Origin: a virus
Taxonomy: Duplodnaviria > Heunggongvirae > Uroviricota > Caudoviricetes
Strand: one strand, 5' to 3'
Length of the DNA stretch: 64,000 nt
Virus record (IMG/VR): IMGVR_UViG_651053023_000001
Span: 1 to 64,000 of that record
Both the position numbers and the translations under genes were made by a program. Shown here one piece after another: positions 3,703-48,308 of this stretch (positions are counted from its first letter, which is position 1; every line of letters begins with the position of its first letter). The notes under the pieces were generated by a model, which saw nothing but the letters and a program-made list of their open reading frames with translations, searched no databases and was not told the DNA's origin.

Positions 3703-3735
3703 TTTGCTCTAATAAATCAAATTTATTAGAGCAAT
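3703..3735. promoter_or_regulatory. overlapping head-to-head pair of C1 operator sites
   Basis: TTTGCTCTAATAAATCA on top strand and ATTGCTCTAATAAATTT on bottom strand, forming a palindrome. Confidence 0.65.
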
Positions 3736-5086: not shown

Positions 5087-5120
5087 ATTGCTCTAATAAA
5101 TTTGATTTATTAGAGCAAAT
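5087..5120. promoter_or_regulatory. overlapping head-to-head pair of C1 operator sites
   Basis: ATTGCTCTAATAAATTT (perfect consensus) at 5087..5103 and its partner ATTTGCTCTAATAAATC on the bottom strand at 5104..5120. Confidence 0.65.
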
Positions 5121-14900: not shown

Positions 14901-15690
14901 TGGTCCCGTTTGCGTCAAAAGTACCGGTAGGCAAGCGGTGAGCGCCAAGAAATTCAGCTTTACGGGATAGGCGCAGGCGTAACCGCTTCATGTTTGAACC
15001 TGAAACAATGGACGGCGGCACAATCACGCACATGAATCCGCCTGGCTTTATCTTGTCCAGCATGCGGAGCATGAAGTAAGAACCCATGTCCGTTTCTTCT
15101 GCGTAAGGCTTATCGATGTTGCGTGTGTTATCACGACCACCGAACGGAACGTTACCCACAACATGGTCGAATGAATCGTTAGGCGTGCTTACAGCCAATT
15201 GTTCGAACGGGGAAATCTGTACGCTGTCTTCCGGGTGTAACAGCTGGTTTATACGACCGGAAACACTGCTGATCTCAGTCGCGGTCATCACCGTACCAAC
15301 CGGTTTTGTCTCATTAAAAACGCCGGTTCCCGCCGATGGTTCCAGAGTGTTACCTACGTCCGCGCCGTAGAGCTTCATGATCTCCCAGACGCCTTCAGCG
15401 ATCGGCTTTGGTGTGTAATATTCGGAGACGGACCCGCCAATGCCGCCTTCACCAGTGTACCCGGCCAGGATCTGGCGCTGTTCATCTGTCAGTGTCGCGC
15501 CGTCCACCAGCGAATTAAGCAAATCTATCGCCTTCTGATTCGCCTCCCGGCGCAGTCGGTCATAGCTTTTGCCTTCCACCTTTTCCACGCCGTATTTAAT
15601 CGGCGCTCGGTGAGATGTTATTGCCCTAATGTATTTCAATATTTCGCTGACACTTGAACAGCGAAACACCCCCATAGATAGCTTGTTCAT
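8923..15690 (-). CDS. darB: DarB antirestriction protein (N6-adenine methyltransferase-like plus helicase domains)
   Basis: 2255 aa (P1 DarB length); methyltransferase-like VGNVPFGG motif near the N-terminus; helicase Walker A GFGTGLGKTTTALAL and DEGH box. Confidence 0.9.
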   Translation of the reverse strand: MNKLSMGVFRCSSVSEILKYIRAITSHRAPIKYGVEKVEGKSYDRLRREANQKAIDLLNSLVDGATLTDEQRQILAGYTGEGGIGGSVSEYYTPKPIAEGVWEIMKLYGADVGNTLEPSAGTGVFNETKPVGTVMTATEISSVSGRINQLLHPEDSVQISPFEQLAVSTPNDSFDHVVGNVPFGGRDNTRNIDKPYAEETDMGSYFMLRMLDKIKPGGFMCVIVPPSIVSGSNMKRLRLRLSRKAEFLGAHRLPTGTFDANGTSTVVDVVLMRKHPAEMAEKIPLVDESTLESANVLWPTFISGKWFEKDGRRFVHGTQEKGFQGRIEVRADGQIDNQALKAKLIHRFESRIDWSLLDMAEPSPTADVVDEGEMRLINGVWQKYAGGRWIEADAGKELKIDAASYGADSWEALQRNLTTTEGRLGMTFTQMANVRDKYTTSISDDMVQLVDWINSQPEKYRERLYRGAMIGRMLIEYQDMKAAGHSAEQIEQQRLSLVSRLQAEIDRFGNPGRGPIAKLSGSGARAWFAFRGAIKLDGTISDELTGKLVTHDSSASYDSTSYQDTLRYLYSDLTRDPIQLDDFRLAFTGELPASDEELLNLLASTPGIAVSPYGGIVPFARATSGDINEIVAPKQEFLATLPDGPVKNNVLNQLAAIEEKRIKTPAENIRFKLNSRWFDRSVILEFLQENGYPDLRYVQSVQLEGDEMVSDTYHGGDGLFVGHRYGVVQRKDKETGEIRYEWDRKSGENATGFPAQLEKYLNGARIGGKDSATANGYREQMALLEDQFNKWIKTHDRYDELVAKYNDVFNSNIPYEHSGDPLGLKGLSGKRQPFDYQNSEVRRLSEDGRGILGFGTGLGKTTTALALEAFNYENGRSTRTAYVVPKSVLENWYYEAKEFLSEEAFSNYLFVGLDVLMDGDQIRQVPVLDENGKPVLGTDGTPVMRDALKLADEATITARMNAIPHSNYRAVVFTKEQYARIPLRDDTVDEHAQDMLYDFVAAGRVASAMDSDSHRKEAARRRVLSEYSDTGTEKAEKYPYFEDMGFDSVIADEGHNYRNSYKNGREASQLAYLPTSAVAQSARDMAIKNAYLMKKNGGRGPVLLTATPVVNTPIDAYNMLSHVLPKEYWQNMGIYGPDDFVKFFGKTRLETVQKISGEVEEKMALVGFENLDALRGIFHRWVTLKTAEDVKDTVEIPELDEHQQDAPLTEEQLAAYEELRQQAEAAAKANNGVTTSVNEDGVIEHEKARPIFSIIRDMDRVCTDMDLYYRRITYRFLPEYADAVQQLADSLPKQATSEYDDSDDSITQQSQYSLIDKGEFIQLQVPEAFEQEVNKRLARFGIDEQTVTHPVTPKYAKLIATLKEFFPEGKQIIFTDEKTQHQKLKRIICNALNLEPSKVGILNAQTVAEAGKTGKKLKAVKPPKELPDEPTDAQIAKYNEQMALYDAYIAQQNEMSLGGLEKIAADFQEGRTPIIICNKKAEVGINLHRGTTDIHHLTLPWTPASIAQRNGRGARVGSNRASVRVHYYCGKGSFDEYRLKTLKRKAGWISDILRSDKSEMENADANDMIEMQMYTAKDDGERLAMMQVQMDKAKAAKRARQKEQATIDLQNYIKAQHAAGEDVEVLTAELERSKAELEKTTAEVAKFKQAAMAKAADNADWKARWGSVHHTDRMLLAQYRASLKSAIQRKANISQAISRYEKLLNRTQKAATDIKRLRPLVEDAINKGILDIDPDMVNHANEFLVIGDRSWRVGQYYDCAGDIVRIKSLDFDSQRADVEIIFTFKGTKSGNWDVKTLDKQVDVTPDEDAVMQKISGGVSIAGINDIISCDDFYRFQQRGMIKITDSYGVQTTESGYSIDFVGTYTDPLKHAVYPDRRDGALKSSIAKWVLGMMSEGNNRQVRLAEVFLTELFGSNYGDVIASYGDTLSPEALQEKIADSIAKMPEKTSQGATRNGDSELEVTNAIFGTHEFRASDYEITTAQFGTIGIYSNKAEIKQAMDAASARIAAEREANLNHAVAALTQSWVTAIREAATTGKITPAIADVVNDGSKFMDAYQMDAVKLPSAYGQLSYRMTYNLVSMFSDLAILGLVDLNEVTPELLSMRKNHVEILQRINTVLAGRTDEEKQADADRINLALGNITEEEIAARNEKQEELSSIQGDATSIAQSLGLNYRVSTADLKMMYAPKFAAGEVFGLQEASGMKGVLFRAKDAIKAKFGARWLPAKAKNSDFPGNWWIIETKHNVADVLAVIQQYA

Positions 15691-18778: not shown

Positions 18779-19336
18779 TTATTCATTGATCAGCCCCGTC
18801 AGGCAAAGCTGGCGTTCTTTTTCACGGCGAATCTTTAAACCTCGCAGGGGCACGCCGTTACTGTTCACAAAATCAGGGAGATGGTTACACATATTCACCC
18901 ATTCCCCTTTCTGCGCCCACTTGTGGATGGACGTTTCGACTCGCATGCCTCGCGCTTTGCTGTAGTAGGTCCGTAAGCTATTGCATCCCATATTGAATGC
19001 CGCGCTTGTCATTGCACTGAAGGCATTATCGGGCATGTCTTTGCCCCGAAAGTGCTGATTAATACAGCGTTCAGCGATCAGGATATTCTTTTCCCAATCA
19101 GCGGCGATTTGCTGGTCGGTTTTTCGCACACCCGGCGTTACCCCGTGTGTATTACCGATCCCGTCAGTCCATACCCCCGCCGGGCACATGTATGGATCAC
19201 GTCGGCAACCTTCAGCGTTACCAATCAGCTCAAGCCCCGCCTGGTTGGTTCGCACATTGCCATTACCCATCACGATGGTAATCATCACCGCGATAGCGCA
19301 AATTGCACCGCCTCCTGCGGCTGTTTTTCCCTTCAT
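18779..19336 (-). CDS. lyz: Lyz SAR-endolysin (T4-lysozyme-type with N-terminal signal-arrest-release segment)
   Basis: 185-aa product from internal ATG: MKGKTAAGGGAICAIAVMITIVMGNGNVRTNQAGLELIGNAEGCRRDPYMCPAGVWTDGIGNTHGVT..., recognised as P1 Lyz; track ORF has a 33-aa upstream extension. Confidence 0.9.
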   Translation of the reverse strand: MKGKTAAGGGAICAIAVMITIVMGNGNVRTNQAGLELIGNAEGCRRDPYMCPAGVWTDGIGNTHGVTPGVRKTDQQIAADWEKNILIAERCINQHFRGKDMPDNAFSAMTSAAFNMGCNSLRTYYSKARGMRVETSIHKWAQKGEWVNMCNHLPDFVNSNGVPLRGLKIRREKERQLCLTGLINE

Positions 19337-19469
19337 AAAGACCTCATAAGCGAATTTTTTACGCTCCAGGACAAACACCCATTCACAGCCAATACCGACT
19401 GACTCGATCCCTTTAGAAGGCACAGGATAATGCAAATCACTTGTTAGCTACGTTTCAAAGATATACATT

Positions 19470-19486
19470 ATTGCTCTAATTAATTT
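19470..19486 (+). promoter_or_regulatory. C1 operator-like site (ATTGCTCTAATTAATTT) between lyz and ssb
   Basis: One mismatch to the C1 operator consensus. Confidence 0.55.
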
Positions 19487-19505
19487 ATTTTATTAGGTAA
19501 GATAA

Positions 19506-19994
19506 GTGGCACAACGCGGTGTAAACAAAGTCATCCTGATTGGCACCCTGGGGCAAGACCCGGAGATCAGGTATATACCAAATGGCGGCGCGGTCGGAAG
19601 ACTCAGCATCGCAACGAATGAATCATGGCGCGACAAGCAAACGGGCCAACAGAAAGAGCAAACAGAATGGCATAAAGTCGTTTTGTTCGGAAAACTTGCT
19701 GAAATTGCGAGTGAGTATTTGCGAAAAGGTTCTCAGGTCTACATCGAAGGGAAACTTAAAACCCGTAAGTGGGCAGATGACGCCGGTGTAGAACGTTACA
19801 CGACGGAAATTATCGTCAGCCAGGGCGGCACCATGCAAATGATCGGCGCTCGCCGTGACGATTCACAGTCCTCAAATGGCTGGGGGCAATCAAACCAACC
19901 TCAAAACCACCAGCAATACAGTGGTGGCGGTAAACCTCAGAGCAACGCCAATAACGAACCTCCAATGGACTTTGACGACGATATTCCGTTTTGA
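19506..19994 (+). CDS. ssb: single-stranded DNA-binding protein
   Basis: GTG start; typical SSB N-terminus ([25 protein letters not shown]...[16 protein letters not shown]...) and acidic C-terminal tail MDFDDDIPF. Confidence 0.92.
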
Positions 19995-20191
19995 ATGTGT
20001 AAAAAACGACTGAAAGAAAAGCGGTGGTCCAGACGCCGACAAAAGCACGAACTCGCTCAAAAACGCCAAAGTTGGCAATGGCACGCGCTTTTAACGAATA
20101 GAACACCCCGAGATATTGCTTTCGCTGGTGGGAAAACATTCCTAACCAACCTGAAGGCGCAATACATCAGTTTTTAAGCAGAGAAAAGACT

Positions 20192-20986
20192 ATGACAGCA
20201 CAAAATACTAAAACCATTCAATACCGCCTACGTAATGGCCAGAGTGTCGAAGTGACCATCAATAACGAGGGAGTGCCAGGCGAAAAGGTTTCTATCTCTG
20301 ATCTGGCTATCGAAAAAACCATCATGTGCCACCTTGGCTTTACTGAAGAAGTGAGCAAAAAGCATGGTGTAGCTATCTGGCGCACAATGGATACTGGAAT
20401 GCGCAGATTCATTACTGCTCGTACCCCTGGTATGACCATGATGGACCTCATGCAGATTGCGCCGCTGTTTGAGTGTGAACCTCTGGATGTATTCAGTAAT
20501 CCAGTTATCTGCCAGCAGTTATATGGTGAGATGAAACTCGCGGTTACCCCCATCGTGCTGCATGAAGGATCGCTTGCTGGCGTATGGAAAGTAGAGCGAA
20601 TTTCAAGCTACATGCCCTTCCACGTCCATGTCAACGGCGTAATCACAGGTGAAAATCAACCTGTTTCAGTTACAAAGTCAGACCTCAAGCGTGCAATTCT
20701 TGAAGCAAGTTGTCGAGTTATCGGCCTGGGCAAACAGTCTTATGTTTGCTTCCCCGCAGGCCCAGAAGGCCAGGCTGAAATACTGGCGATGGATGCCGAT
20801 CTGCTCTGGCAAATAGAGTTTATGATAGGGAAAAGCATCATCCGAGCTGAAGAACTCGATCAGTACATTACCTGCACAATGACGGATGAGGTAAAAAGTG
20901 TGGCTATAGCCAAAGCCCGGAACCTGTGTCGTGCTGCATTAACAGAACTGCGAGAAAACACCACGGAAGAGGTGGAAAGTGATTAA
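20192..20986 (+). CDS. hypothetical protein
   Basis: 264-aa ORF, overlaps next ORF by 8 nt (operon). Confidence 0.55.
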   Translation: MTAQNTKTIQYRLRNGQSVEVTINNEGVPGEKVSISDLAIEKTIMCHLGFTEEVSKKHGVAIWRTMDTGMRRFITARTPGMTMMDLMQIAPLFECEPLDVFSNPVICQQLYGEMKLAVTPIVLHEGSLAGVWKVERISSYMPFHVHVNGVITGENQPVSVTKSDLKRAILEASCRVIGLGKQSYVCFPAGPEGQAEILAMDADLLWQIEFMIGKSIIRAEELDQYITCTMTDEVKSVAIAKARNLCRAALTELRENTTEEVESD

Positions 20987-22073
20987 TCGTATACAGAATG
21001 AATCTGCCTGGTTAGCACTGATAGAACAGTATAAAGACAATTGGGAACTGGCAGCGAAAGAGTTGCTTGATATTGAGTTAACACCTCATCAAGCAAAAAT
21101 TATTAACGCGATAAAGAACACCGGAGCCAAAGTCACTGCCACCACACCACATGGTATTGGGGAAACCTCTATTGTGGCAGTGATTAGCATCCTGCAAACA
21201 ATACTGTATTCGTGTTCCCGTACAGTGGTTGTTTCTCCTGCTATTAACGATAGTCGAAAAACAATAATTGACTATATGTTCCGTTATTGGGAGCGAGTTA
21301 CCCAAAAACACCCTTTTCTTGGCAATCATTTCAGAATGCACCCTGACAAAGGGTTGGTGCATATCAGTGAAACATGGGGATGCGTCTATATAACCTATTG
21401 TCTGAATAACGAAGTGTCTCTGGCTGGTTTTACTGGACCGCACGATCTTTTCATCGTTATTAACTCGGCGGAAATCAGCGATCGCGCTCATGCAGTGATA
21501 ACTGGCAATTTAACCAATTATGACTCGCGCCTGCTGTTGCTGTCGAAACCATCGGAACGCGAGAAAGGGTACTTTTATGATTCGCATCACCGGTTGGCCC
21601 ATAGTAAAAACAATCCTGCTGGTTTTTTCACGGCGATAACTCTAAACACAGAGGATTCGCCTCTCGTTTCTGAAGCATATCTTGAATTCAAAGCCAAAGA
21701 GTTTGGTGGGCGCAATAGCGATGAATATCGCCGATTGATCTTGGGGAAATTTCCCGGGATTCGGGAGTTGATGGAAAAGTCATCTGTTCCCCGTAATATG
21801 CACTTCACAATGACTGACGGTAGTAAATGGGTAGTGCCTACGATCGTGATCGCCAAACACCATGCGAAACATCACGCTCAAAAACACAACTCCAGCACAT
21901 TAGACTGGCTGAAGGCCTATACAATACCGTTATTCTCGGCAAACCATAACGCTATAGCTGAATGGGCTAAACAAATCCCCTGGCAGGATGTGGCTGAAGA
22001 GGCATTTGTCGAAAAACCTCCGAGAGATTTGCACGAGCACTGTTGGCTGACATCAGAAAAGAGCTTCTCGTGA
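20979..22073 (+). CDS. hypothetical protein with weak resemblance to a degenerate terminase-type ATPase fold
   Basis: 364 aa; segment TPHQAKIINAIKNTGAKVTATTPHGIGETS...LFIVINSAEIS loosely resembles terminase ATPase Walker A/B regions but lacks the canonical lysine. Confidence 0.5.
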   Translation: MINRIQNESAWLALIEQYKDNWELAAKELLDIELTPHQAKIINAIKNTGAKVTATTPHGIGETSIVAVISILQTILYSCSRTVVVSPAINDSRKTIIDYMFRYWERVTQKHPFLGNHFRMHPDKGLVHISETWGCVYITYCLNNEVSLAGFTGPHDLFIVINSAEISDRAHAVITGNLTNYDSRLLLLSKPSEREKGYFYDSHHRLAHSKNNPAGFFTAITLNTEDSPLVSEAYLEFKAKEFGGRNSDEYRRLILGKFPGIRELMEKSSVPRNMHFTMTDGSKWVVPTIVIAKHHAKHHAQKHNSSTLDWLKAYTIPLFSANHNAIAEWAKQIPWQDVAEEAFVEKPPRDLHEHCWLTSEKSFS

Positions 22074-22076
22074 GGT

Positions 22077-22105
22077 AAAAATCCCGCCGATTGGCGGGAT
22101 TTCTT
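22077..22105. terminator. bidirectional terminator (AAAATCCCGCC-gatt-GGCGGGATTTCTTT)
   Basis: Perfect stem flanked by an A-run and a T-run, between convergent transcription units. Confidence 0.6.
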
Positions 22106-22413
22106 TAATATATGATCTGGTCTATATGATCACCAAAATCATCGTCGTCGTCCTCATCGCCACCATCTACTGCTGGCCAATCAACAAACCAGCCAGCGTA
22201 AAGATGCAGCGTTCGGAGAACATCACTTGCGGGAGCATCAAGGGTGTTAACGAATCCCATATAGCTATTGGGATTTGCCCCAGCTATGGCTTCAGCGATC
22301 ATGTCCTCGGTAATGTCACCGGAGATAATGCTTAAACGCCCGGAAACTTCTTCATTATCATCAAATTCGATAATGGCATCTCCGCCTAATGGCGCTGCGA
22401 TTTTAATCTGCAT
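22105..22413 (-). CDS. small highly acidic protein at the 3' end of the dar operon
   Basis: 102 aa with acidic C-terminal tail GGDEDDDDDFGDHIDQIIY; overlaps ddrB stop. Confidence 0.5.
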   Translation of the reverse strand: MQIKIAAPLGGDAIIEFDDNEEVSGRLSIISGDITEDMIAEAIAGANPNSYMGFVNTLDAPASDVLRTLHLYAGWFVDWPAVDGGDEDDDDDFGDHIDQIIY

Positions 22414-25390
22414 TATTTAGCTCCTTTGCCACACCTAATAACAGTTCCAGCAATCCGTCACCATTCATCAGTGATGCGGCAGCGGCCTCTTTGTCATGAT
22501 ACAACTGAAGAGCCATAGAGAATACTTCCGTTGCTGACGTTTTGGAAATAGTCGGGGATTTCTGCCGAATTTTCCCAGTGTTACTTACTGAGGCTGGCGG
22601 GTATACCTTCGCCATATAAATATTACTCAATCGAGATCTGAAGCACCATTCAGGCTTGCCACGCCCACCGATATTAACGAAAGATGGCTTATCCCCTTCA
22701 ACATTGGCCTTCAGGAATGACCGGGCTTTCTCTAACAAACCAGGGTTACTGTACTCAAGATGATGACCCAGCTCGTGCCACAGTGCACTTGCATTTTCAT
22801 CGTTCAAATTGACAGCAACAACACCATTAAGATTTGCATATGCCCTTCCCTTGTGGTGAACCACCTTTGATAAGGTCGAAATTTTACCGCCGGTCAGGCG
22901 ATAAATATCAGCAAGTTCCTTGCGCAGGTCTATCCCACCATTCTGTCCAGCGCGGGCTTCTTCCACTTCTTCCGTGATAAAAGAGTCGGCCCACTCAAGA
23001 GCTTTTTCTTCAGATACGGATGAGTTTGCGATCGCACTGTTCATGGCAGATAACACTTTCTCGTGGACCGAACCCATACTTCGCTGATTCATTTGCCAGC
23101 GTGTCTGCGGGTTGTATGAGAATCGCTTAAGTAGTTGGTCAAGCTGCTCAAGTTCTTCTTCACTGACATACTTTTTAGCCTCACCAATAATGCCAGGGAG
23201 AATATTGCCGTTAGGATTAAACGCTCGCGAAAGGAAGAGTTTCAGCGCCCCCATGCCCTCCGATGCTTCAATATCACCAATAACCCGGTTAACAATGGCC
23301 GCACTCTTCGGATTAGCATCCGCCAACGCCCTGGCTACAATTTGCAGGGACGATACGACCTCACGCTGCATATCAGTCCTGATCTCATCAATAAACTCTG
23401 GCGTTATGCCGTGCTCTTTAAGGATATCCCTGCCTTCCGCCGTTACCCCATCGATATCACCGACATGTTTATTAACCTGACTTTGCAATGCCTTAAATGC
23501 CTTCAGAATTCCACGGGCATCATCAGCTTTACTAACGGCCTTCCTGAATGCTGGCAAGAAGTCTGAGTTAACCTCATTTTGTTGATCGGCCCACTGAATG
23601 GAGGCTTCTTTCATCTCGTCCAGAGTCAGATCACCCAACGCGGTATGGTCTGTGAATATGAGCGACAACCTCTGAACCATTTCTGCCAATGGTGATGCCG
23701 AATGCGCCGCGCTAAGGAATGCTTTCACCCTGGTTGGGCGAATGGAAAACCAGTCAATAGCTGGTGGCATATCTCCGTTTTTTATCGCCTGCGCTATCTC
23801 GTCAAAGCCATCGCGCCCAAGGGAGGATGCGTGATTTAACAAGCCGCGAAGTAACGAATTGCTGATACCGAATAATCGGCACCATTTTTTCACGTCGGCA
23901 ACAGGCATTCGAACAAAATGCGCAAGCACTTGTACAAGCTGTTCATCCTGGGGATCTGTGCGGGAAAGCAGCCTGATCAGATGAATAATGTCTTTGATGC
24001 CGGATGCCCGATGTAATAGCAAACTGGTATACGGAGCAACACCGTTGTAACTACCGCCGGAAACGGACTCGAAAAGACCGCCGGATATCCCTTGCATGCC
24101 TTCGTATTCCAGTTCCTGAGACACCTGGCGAAGGATATCCTGTAACGACACATCGCCGCCGCCAAACATATCCCCGAGCGCCTGGCCCTGGTGCTGTAAC
24201 TCATCATTGATACGTTGCGCCATCAACTTAAAGGCGGTGGCCATACGCTTCGCGCTACGGTTATTCGCGACGATGAACAACGCGAGTGCTTTCACTTCCG
24301 GGGCCGTTTCGCTGAACATATCCCCCTGAGCAATAACATCGGTAATATGCTGGCCTGACTCCTTCGATTGCCTTACCAGGTCTACCGCATCTTTCAATGC
24401 CGCCAGCGCCTTTTTATCGAGGCTATCCGCTGTCTCAATGCCATCAACAATAGTTGTCACAGCCTGCTTGTGCGCTTCTCCTGATAAAGCCTGCATCTGG
24501 ACAAAATCATTGGCTGCCGCATTAAGCGCCGTCAGAACATTACGCATATCCGGATCAGGTTCTTCTGCAACCATCCTTACCAGGCGCGCATCCTTATATG
24601 CCTTGGCAAAGATCGCGTTTTGTATACGGTCAACAAGTTGCCGTGTTGGTCGCCCATCTTCAGTTACAAGGCCAGCCGCCTGTGTGGCACCAACTTGCGT
24701 CATGAATCCGCGAATAAACGCGTCATTACTGCGGCTAAGCAGATCTCCGCTTTCTGACGGGTTAAACAACGCCATCATCGCCGGTGTTATGCTGTCGGCA
24801 TCAACAAAAGCCTTTTCACTGGCTGCCATTTCCTGGAGATCAGAAATATTTGAGTCCTTGGCAAACTGAACACGGTCAACCTTCGTTAACCGGCGGCGCA
24901 CCAGTACCGGAGCCGTCATTGATTCAACCTTTTCAGGCCGTATGCCGAATTCGGTCGCATGTTCAATCAGGTACTCCCGATACCGATCCGCATTACCGTC
25001 CTGATAGGCTTTGATGATCCCCATGGTCCGTCCATTACCTGACTCAACGGCATTGTCCTCACCAATTATCGGCGCGCCATGGCTGGATAAACCGGAATCA
25101 GTAAGCTGAGCAGGCCGCAAATCTTTGGATATCTGGTTAACCTGAAGAAGGCTGGATGCGCGGGTCCGGTCGCGCGGCTGAAGTTCCTGGGGATAGTCAG
25201 GATTAATTTTCCCATCCAGAGTATTGGATACCAAAAGAGCTGAGGCATCGACGATATCAAACGCTGTTTTTACCTCGTCTCCCTTCGCTGTCACCACATA
25301 CGAAACCCGCCCATAATCGGGCAGGTTCTTTAGCAGCTCGATCAGCGTTTCTATGCTGGTGGCCATTACCACCTGATCGCTTAAGCTCAT
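22403..25390 (-). CDS. ddrB: DdrB-like large Dar-system protein
   Basis: 995-aa ORF downstream of darA/ddrA in the same operon; assignment by size and synteny. Confidence 0.6.
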   Translation of the reverse strand: MSLSDQVVMATSIETLIELLKNLPDYGRVSYVVTAKGDEVKTAFDIVDASALLVSNTLDGKINPDYPQELQPRDRTRASSLLQVNQISKDLRPAQLTDSGLSSHGAPIIGEDNAVESGNGRTMGIIKAYQDGNADRYREYLIEHATEFGIRPEKVESMTAPVLVRRRLTKVDRVQFAKDSNISDLQEMAASEKAFVDADSITPAMMALFNPSESGDLLSRSNDAFIRGFMTQVGATQAAGLVTEDGRPTRQLVDRIQNAIFAKAYKDARLVRMVAEEPDPDMRNVLTALNAAANDFVQMQALSGEAHKQAVTTIVDGIETADSLDKKALAALKDAVDLVRQSKESGQHITDVIAQGDMFSETAPEVKALALFIVANNRSAKRMATAFKLMAQRINDELQHQGQALGDMFGGGDVSLQDILRQVSQELEYEGMQGISGGLFESVSGGSYNGVAPYTSLLLHRASGIKDIIHLIRLLSRTDPQDEQLVQVLAHFVRMPVADVKKWCRLFGISNSLLRGLLNHASSLGRDGFDEIAQAIKNGDMPPAIDWFSIRPTRVKAFLSAAHSASPLAEMVQRLSLIFTDHTALGDLTLDEMKEASIQWADQQNEVNSDFLPAFRKAVSKADDARGILKAFKALQSQVNKHVGDIDGVTAEGRDILKEHGITPEFIDEIRTDMQREVVSSLQIVARALADANPKSAAIVNRVIGDIEASEGMGALKLFLSRAFNPNGNILPGIIGEAKKYVSEEELEQLDQLLKRFSYNPQTRWQMNQRSMGSVHEKVLSAMNSAIANSSVSEEKALEWADSFITEEVEEARAGQNGGIDLRKELADIYRLTGGKISTLSKVVHHKGRAYANLNGVVAVNLNDENASALWHELGHHLEYSNPGLLEKARSFLKANVEGDKPSFVNIGGRGKPEWCFRSRLSNIYMAKVYPPASVSNTGKIRQKSPTISKTSATEVFSMALQLYHDKEAAAASLMNGDGLLELLLGVAKELNNAD

Positions 25391-46620: not shown

Positions 46621-46637
46621 CCTGCTCTAATAAATTT
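46621..46637 (+). promoter_or_regulatory. C1 operator-like site upstream of the canonical immI module
   Basis: CCTGCTCTAATAAATTT, 2 mismatches to consensus. Confidence 0.5.
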
Positions 46638-48291: not shown

Positions 48292-48308
48292 TTTGCTCTA
48301 ATAAATTT
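48292..48308 (+). promoter_or_regulatory. C1 operator at the kilA-repL promoter
   Basis: TTTGCTCTAATAAATTT, one mismatch to consensus, ~70 bp upstream of kilA. Confidence 0.65.

Follow-up and report, generated by a model that had tools for sequence, protein, structure and literature searches.

A predicted non-catalytic relative of the PacB terminase in the ssb–hxr interval of P1-like phage-plasmids

The closest described relative of the gene considered here is pacB, which encodes the large terminase subunit (TerL) of the PacA–PacB pacase of the P1 family; PacA is the small terminase subunit (TerS). The window analysed, that is, the whole stretch of 64,000 nt at positions 1 to 64,000 of IMG/VR virus record IMGVR_UViG_651053023_000001, belongs to a P1-like phage-plasmid that carries two overlapping open reading frames (ORFs), ORF1 (isaA) and ORF2, between the ssb gene and the dar operon. 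ORF2 very probably encodes a duplicated PacB ATPase domain without the hydrolysing residues and the nuclease and with a small unrelated C-terminal domain; proteins of this type are referred to below as psi-TerL. The whole ATPase domain is homologous to that of PacB, the two proteins share a fold, the N-terminal helix and the lid-region motifs, and their genes are found in elements of one kind. Unlike PacB, ORF2 lacks the Walker A lysine, the Walker B Asp–Glu pair, the C-motif and the RNase H-like nuclease, has an additional, unrelated C-terminal domain and does not adjoin pacA; it is optional, whereas PacB is essential.

The solved TerL ATPase domains (Thermus phage P74-26, T4 gp17, HK97 and Sf6 gp2) are 10–16% identical to ORF2 and belong to active motors with canonical motifs. 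The isaA–IS1–isaB region of P1 occupies the same ssb–hxr slot and has IsaA in common with the window, while the IsaB of P1 is unrelated to ORF2. Since the slot of the P1 laboratory genome contains IS1 and isaB and no ORF2, the gene has gone unnoticed, though P1 is heavily studied. Literature searches found no prior description of a terminase paralogue devoid of catalysis, of a terminase decoy or of a function for isaA. Satellites encode packaging-interference proteins, including Ppi of Staphylococcus aureus pathogenicity islands (SaPI), Rpp of phage-inducible chromosomal islands (PICI) and satellite TerS, which target or replace the small subunit and are not derived from TerL; their likeness to psi-TerL lies in the concept of a non-catalytic terminase binder. 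Ksap2 of phage Bas60, an activator of KpAvs2, is small, has no detectable terminase sequence homology and triggers defence rather than evading it.

ORF2 and the ATPase domain of PacB

Searches of Pfam, NCBIfam, PADLOC and PDB sequences with ORF2 gave nothing useful. The protein falls into phrog_5902 (unknown function) and shows a weak match (1e-7) to phrog_2, terminase large subunit. A word-indexed search turned up only near-identical proteins, one relative at 53% and, with the canonical motifs of a terminase, a protein of 471 aa; a profile built from these relatives recovered more than 1000 terminases of ~470 aa, some of them with PF03237. Residues 11–272 of ORF2 align with PacB with 35% identity and 57% positives (E 1e-52). 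The resemblance to a degenerate terminase-type ATPase proposed in the preliminary description survives a profile search and is supported. ORF2 is not located beside a small terminase subunit gene; in such elements pacA–pacB is found elsewhere, adjoining c1 and cre. An apparent second psi-TerL in P1-like viral contigs was PacB itself, beside pacA, c1 and cre.

The predicted structure of ORF2 combines the ASCE ATPase-domain fold with detectable TerL sequence homology. Compared with solved terminases, it scored 21.4 against P74-26, 19.7 against the T4 gp17 ATPase domain (2o0h), 19.5 against HK97, 18.0 against full-length T4 gp17 (3cpe), 16.9 against D6E, 15.5 against PhiV-1 and 14.6 against Sf6; as the model was made from a terminase alignment, the fold match is partly dependent on the sequence evidence. 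The features of ORF2 are as follows.

20979..22073, + strand: ORF2, 364 aa, GTG start (ORF scan)
20979..21758, + strand: residues 1–260, predicted catalytically degenerate TerL ATPase domain (psi-TerL), PacB paralogue
21144..21167, + strand: Walker A remnant, T56-P-H-G-I-G-E-T63 (family S-G-H-G-T-G-K-S)
21447..21470, + strand: Walker B remnant, L157-F-I-V-I-N-S-A164 (family hhhh-D161-E162-A-S)
21540..21554, + strand: C-motif remnant, L-S-K-P-S (family L-S-Q-P-T; SQPT or GNPT)
21759..22073, + strand: residues 261–364 and the stop codon, a separate small domain in the place of the nuclease

Motifs were extracted from 150 representatives, and in the conservation table ORF2 stood beside 10 further degenerate relatives and 24 real terminases of the PacB family. 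The two features noticed earlier, a lysine-free segment resembling Walker A (T56-P-H-G-I-G-E62-T) and a hydrophobic strand resembling Walker B (F158-I-V-I-N-S-A-E), are both present and align to the true terminase motifs. In Walker A, K62 is replaced by Glu and G57 by Pro; G57, T60 and K62 are 100% conserved in the 24 real terminases. In Walker B, D161 is replaced by Ile and E162 by Asn, so that the catalytic glutamate is gone. Q190 and T192 of the C-motif are lost throughout the psi clade, and H152 and R194, otherwise invariant in real terminases, are both lost in ORF2. All three motifs are degenerate in 11 of 11 psi-clade members and intact in all (100%) of the 24 real relatives; ATP binding would appear to be lost in ORF2.

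Other parts of the domain are retained. Q38, G59, G61, A149-G150, S189, G197, F199, H204, S227, G243-G244, Y250, G256 and F258 are kept in ORF2, together with the N-terminal helix and, in the lid region, the motifs GYFYDSHH, EDSPLV and YGGR..YR..LG.FP; W22, A25, L34, I159, L186, Y200, P228 and R251 are conserved in the psi group only. Because the fold, the helix and the lid-region motifs are kept without an active site, the protein most likely acts by binding a normal contact of the terminase ATPase domain, and ORF2 probably works by binding rather than by catalysis.

An RNase H-like nuclease domain is missing from ORF2, in which only 104 residues follow the ATPase domain. The possibility that these are a nuclease remnant was rejected (hhalign against PacB-family nuclease domains, probability 0.3%). 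The C-terminal domain contains the recurring motif TMPDGS.W.VP..VIA...A..YA......T.PLF......DWA.NNMNW.DV and matches the C-terminus of phrog_17928; a PDB profile search gave only a non-significant match (E 0.3), and the confidence of the domain model was only ~60. The domain is free-standing in P0228 and in gp35 of Cronobacter phage JK004, forms the C-terminus of a DUF1351-like protein in the recombinase–exonuclease–SSB module of Xanthomonas CP2-like phages and, in P0160, a domain of this type is placed N-terminal to a degenerate terminase domain. Most psi-TerLs are devoid of it. This segment of ~100 aa, found at 21759–22070 of the window, at L124:5010–5306 and at L125:1885–3300, represents a widespread unnamed phage domain. 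In the E. albertii plasmid NZ_CP117661, the IS4-like element ISEc60 is inserted in ORF2 exactly at the boundary between the ATPase-like and C-terminal domains (L129:2501–4487).

An exhaustive search of representatives yielded 1159 matches, and motifs and lengths were compared in the best 150 of them. Among these 150, canonical motifs are associated with proteins of ~450–570 aa or obvious truncated fragments of such proteins, and degenerate motifs with domain-only proteins of ~250–270 aa or with a different C-terminus. The 11 degenerate sequences form one clade within the PacB family in 194 of 200 neighbour-joining bootstraps, and still in 183 of 200 after removal of the motif columns, in distance trees (own code) that are open to long-branch attraction. 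ORF2 groups with P0139, P0140, P0143, P0144, P0145, P0147, P0149, P0182 and P0206; P0176 lies outside the clade. According to these trees, psi-TerL is a monophyletic pseudoenzyme branch of the TerL ATPase family, consisting of at least 11 clusters.

The frame of ORF2 is intact in all 31 IMG/VR copies. The ratio of non-synonymous to synonymous substitution rates (dN/dS; pairwise Nei–Gojobori) was calculated within two clades 52% identical to each other, giving 0.28 for the window's clade (13 alleles) and 0.12 for the other (10 alleles). Between those two lineages, PacB is 57% and psi-TerL 52% identical; in deeper lineages the psi-TerLs are 32–38% identical, against 57–61% for the PacBs of the same elements. 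ORF2 is under purifying selection and is a functional gene.

IsaA, the variable slot and transcription signals

Bases 19400–22500 of the window are 99.6% identical to ‘Punavirus P1’ MH422554; against P1 (NC_005856) the same bases give two aligned pieces only (64% coverage). Around ORF2 the following features were found.

19470..19486, + strand: C1 repressor operator 5′ of ssb, equivalent of Ossb/Op21, one mismatch to ATTGCTCTAATAAATTT
19506..19994, + strand: ssb (ORF scan; annotation of the near-identical MH422554 and of P1)
19995..20191, + strand: ssb–isaA spacer, 197 nt (promoter/terminator scan)
20192..20986, + strand: ORF1 (isaA), 264 aa, ATG start (ORF scan)
22079..22102, no strand assigned: 10-bp G+C-rich hairpin at the convergent ORF2/hxr junction, terminator-like on the + strand (scan)
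22105..22413, − strand: hxr, terminal gene of the dar anti-restriction operon (darA-ddrA-ddrB-hxr), convergent with ORF2; marks the right-hand edge of the cargo slot

The ORF scan agrees with the preliminary description of two overlapping frames of 264 and 364 aa situated between ssb and the dar operon: they overlap by 8 nt (GTGATTAA), ssb lies upstream, and hxr, ddrB, ddrA and darA follow downstream on the minus strand. The Shine–Dalgarno-like sequence GAGGTGG is located 4 nt 5′ of the ORF2 GTG. The interval as first delimited ends at 22105, 32 nt beyond the stop codon of ORF2; the hairpin is inside it, and its last base is the first of hxr. The G+C content falls to 0.43–0.44 across ORF2 (21000–21750), compared with 0.50–0.55 in the flanking structural genes, which agrees with low G+C values reported for variable regions of P1-like plasmids (PMC9603915).

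The operator at 19470–19486, the counterpart of the site annotated Ossb/Op21 in P1, is the probable control point of ssb, isaA and ORF2. In the ssb–isaA spacer, consensus scans found no terminator-like site on the + strand and no sigma-70-like promoter, and an Rfam search of 19000–22600, spacer included, gave no match. With a C1 operator before ssb, no terminator-like site or promoter inside and a hairpin after ORF2, the three genes are read, on motif and consensus scans, as probably a single early transcription unit under C1 control. The C1 operator consensus has nine matches in the window (0.23 expected by chance), located at 1962–1978, 3703–3735, 5087–5119, 15620–15636, 19470–19486, 46621–46637 and 48292–48308; those at 3703–3735 and 5087–5119 are overlapping inverted pairs.

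ORF1 is 94–97% identical to P1-family IsaA clusters, has the same position after ssb as in P1 and ends in ...TEEVESD*, the C-terminus of P1 isaA (NC_005856). It belongs to PHROG 2326, annotated as of unknown function, and has no match in Pfam, NCBIfam, PADLOC or PDB sequence searches; an AlphaFold 2 model of IsaA made from 7 sequences was unusable (predicted local distance difference test, pLDDT, 44; predicted template modelling score, pTM, 0.29). A paralogous relationship to PacA was rejected (blastp E > 0.3, hhalign probability 0.3%). P1 isaA is annotated (NC_005856 21569–22531) from an upstream GTG as a 320-aa protein. In the window the upstream frame, in 19995–20191, is closed by a stop, and the 264-aa ATG form is the commoner (803 and 704 cluster members, compared with 15 for the long form); the P1 reference probably places the isaA start too far upstream. 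Both isaA and isaB scored as non-essential (NE) in a P1 CRISPR interference screen (PMC10695390).

The interval between ssb and hxr has been described as variable in P1-like plasmids, under the names RD-2 (PMC6906374) and region 2 (PMC9603915). Its states are listed below.

CP012494: ssb-isaA-hxr
Window and NZ_CP063505: ssb-isaA-ORF2-hxr
SJ46: ssb-Tad2-like-isaA-hxr
Ro157c2YLVW: ssb-Tad2-like-isaA-[95-aa ORF]-hxr
P1: ssb-isaA-IS1-isaB-hxr
E. albertii plasmid: ORF2 split by ISEc60

The suggestion that the two ORFs sit where P1 carries IS1 is borne out: in NC_005856, an isaA with the same C-terminus is followed by unrelated DNA, IS1 (insB, insA) and isaB. Comparison with the isaA and isaB flanks of P1 identifies ORF1 as IsaA and finds no ORF2 in P1. 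The P1 DNA past the isaA stop is unaligned with the window as far as hxr, and P1 IsaB (201 aa, MNTYSDKIHN...) is unrelated to ORF2. The idea that ORF2 is a P1 gene in its uninterrupted form, broken by IS1 in P1 itself, was rejected, since the P1 DNA diverges straight after the isaA stop. In PLSDB, isaA is present in 336 plasmids, 120 of which carry ORF2. Of 5426 complete E. coli genomes, 99 carry a full-length ORF2, which is nearly always plasmid-borne and is annotated there as hypothetical; P1 and P7 lack ORF2, and the gene is optional.

The neighbours of other psi-TerLs vary. Where contigs offer enough flanking DNA, most can be recognised as P1-like by a C1-type repressor, a Cre-like recombinase, pacAB and ParM; those for P0136, P0138, P0143, P0176 and P0182 are too short to show much context. 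At loci L021 and L138, cre and a dUTPase gene are followed by Tad2-like, IsaA and psi-TerL genes. The Tad2-like gene (PF11195/DUF2829, E 1e-20) lies directly 5′ of isaA in L021, L138, SJ46 and Ro157c2YLVW and is missing from the window itself. These arrangements suggest a mobile Tad2-like/IsaA/psi-TerL cassette, each part of which is optional. The overlapping isaA–psi-TerL junction is kept in three lineages (the window, L021 and L138). An obligatory partnership was rejected; as isaA is found alone and psi-TerL is found without isaA, IsaA is a frequent partner, not an obligatory one. Tad2-like genes are located at L021:4527–5213, L138:5515–6201, L131:2293–2970 and L132:2125–2970, in four P1-like lineages with 60–71% identity between them.

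In other contexts, ssb is followed by psi-TerL (L117), a radical SAM gene is followed by psi-TerL, or psi-TerL is isolated, near parM and pacAB. Citrobacter freundii P1-like plasmids carry a gene for a Ref-family RecA-dependent nuclease, a 263-aa psi-TerL and then mat (L118:7336–8792; L130:5333–6789). The Ref-family gene overlaps the psi-TerL start by 4 nt, a second, independent translationally coupled upstream pairing.

Possible functions of psi-TerL

The best overall explanation, held tentatively, is that ORF2 is a PacB-derived dead ATPase domain that may be expressed early as a binder and belong to an optional counter-defence module. ORF2 would be translationally coupled to isaA and transcribed with ssb from a C1-repressed early promoter, giving expression at infection or induction, ahead of the late terminase. 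In such a module, which would serve in phage–host or phage–phage conflict, the terminase look-alike could engage host factors that recognise the terminase fold or could cover monomeric PacB; terminase-sensing STAND/Avs receptors are an example of a target, and IsaA may be the partner of psi-TerL. Counter-defence mimicry, the preferred mechanism, is argued from gene linkage and should be regarded as possible, though on the unlikely side. An optional gene in a known variable slot, the Tad2-like linkage, the adjacent dar operon and the rapid divergence of psi-TerL are consistent with a role in conflict. According to published work, STAND (Avs) receptors sense terminase folds in monomeric form (PMC13581612), and terminase may be shielded from KpAvs2 in the course of infection by an unidentified factor (PMC11564622). 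A more specific form of this mechanism, in which psi-TerL is a self-made structural mimic of PacB that disarms, saturates or hides terminase from NLR-like (Avs-type) receptors within a cassette with IsaA and a Tad2-like sponge, is distinctly doubtful; if true, it would be the first case of target mimicry used as a counter-measure against the pattern-recognition immunity of bacteria.

Several points weigh against a counter-defence role. The argument is purely one of guilt by association: neither ORF1 nor ORF2 has a PADLOC, Pfam or NCBIfam match, and only a neighbour gene in relatives is Tad2-like. Binding by a terminase look-alike ought to trigger an Avs sensor, not to block it. At least one terminase sensor, Avs3, reads the ATPase and nuclease active sites, neither of which ORF2 has. 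Other psi-TerLs lie beside ssb, ref or radical SAM genes, with no Tad2-like gene or IsaA within the available flanks. Co-transcription with ssb is predicted from consensus scans only and the loss of ATP binding from sequence alone, and in P0139 and P0147 the lysine is kept, shifted by one residue.

It is unlikely that psi-TerL is instead a regulator or poison subunit of terminase, which would join or titrate the PacA–PacB holoenzyme or the portal via retained oligomerisation or TerS-binding surfaces, delaying the element's own pac cleavage and packaging or exerting a dominant-negative block on the terminase of competing P1-like elements. ORF2 is paralogous to the element's own PacB and not to a foreign terminase, it has kept its lid-region motifs and N-terminal helix but not its catalytic residues, and contexts with enough flanking DNA are mostly P1-like elements with pacAB; the similar divergence of the two genes between the two closer lineages (52% and 57%) fits a long co-residence. 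However, the gene is dispensable, since P1, P7 and two of every three plasmids with isaA do without it. If expressed early with ssb, the protein would poison the element's own late terminase too, unless it is specific; if repressed by C1, it would be largely silent in the lysogen, a poor fit to superinfection exclusion.

A role as an accessory of DNA metabolism, with the ASCE fold as a non-hydrolysing DNA- or SSB-binding scaffold acting with early proteins of recombination or replication such as SSB and Ref and the C-terminal domain as an adaptor, is rather unlikely. It draws on three of the genomic contexts and on the other settings in which the C-terminal domain occurs; its weak point is that in P1-like genomes ssb and ref are simply early units, controlled by C1, at which cargo collects. 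Moreover, the C-terminal domain is missing from most psi-TerLs, the analysis identified no DNA-binding motif, and the L021 and L138 modules have no adjoining recombination gene.

It is very improbable that ORF2 is the decaying leftover of a terminase gene once duplicated or captured and now without function, and the ‘packaging-related relic’ of the preliminary description is not upheld. The loss of all catalytic motifs and of the nuclease domain, the position in an insertion hotspot (IS1 in P1, ISEc60 in the ORF2 of the E. albertii plasmid) and the NE scores of isaA and isaB in P1 screens (PMC10695390) would suit a relic. The intact frame (31/31 viral contigs, and full-length in 99/99 E. coli genomes) and the dN/dS of 0.12–0.28 lead to its rejection; in addition, some residues are conserved in the psi clade only, and the gene has been kept, with its overlapping start, through ~50% amino-acid divergence. 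That ORF2 is a genuine active TerL, in line with its automated annotation in MH422554 and MH445380 and the weak PHROG 2 match, is practically untenable and was refuted by the motif and domain tests, given that it has no Walker A lysine, Walker B acids or nuclease domain and that related ORF2-carrying elements (e.g. IMG/VR contig 3300045988_155300) encode a complete pacA–pacB elsewhere.

A practical consequence concerns annotation. In databases ORF2 is recorded as a ‘hypothetical protein’ or as ‘terminase large subunit’ (MH422554.1 16006–17100; MH445380.1); because the catalytic motifs and the nuclease domain are missing, the latter label is a mis-annotation and is misleading. For the biology of P1-like elements, ORF2 would be a clean example of a viral pseudoenzyme, in which a conserved terminase domain is under selection yet catalytically dead. 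It may provide a handle on how a paralogue can modulate the assembly or timing of terminase, and on whether phages have countermeasures to the widespread immune receptors for the terminase fold.

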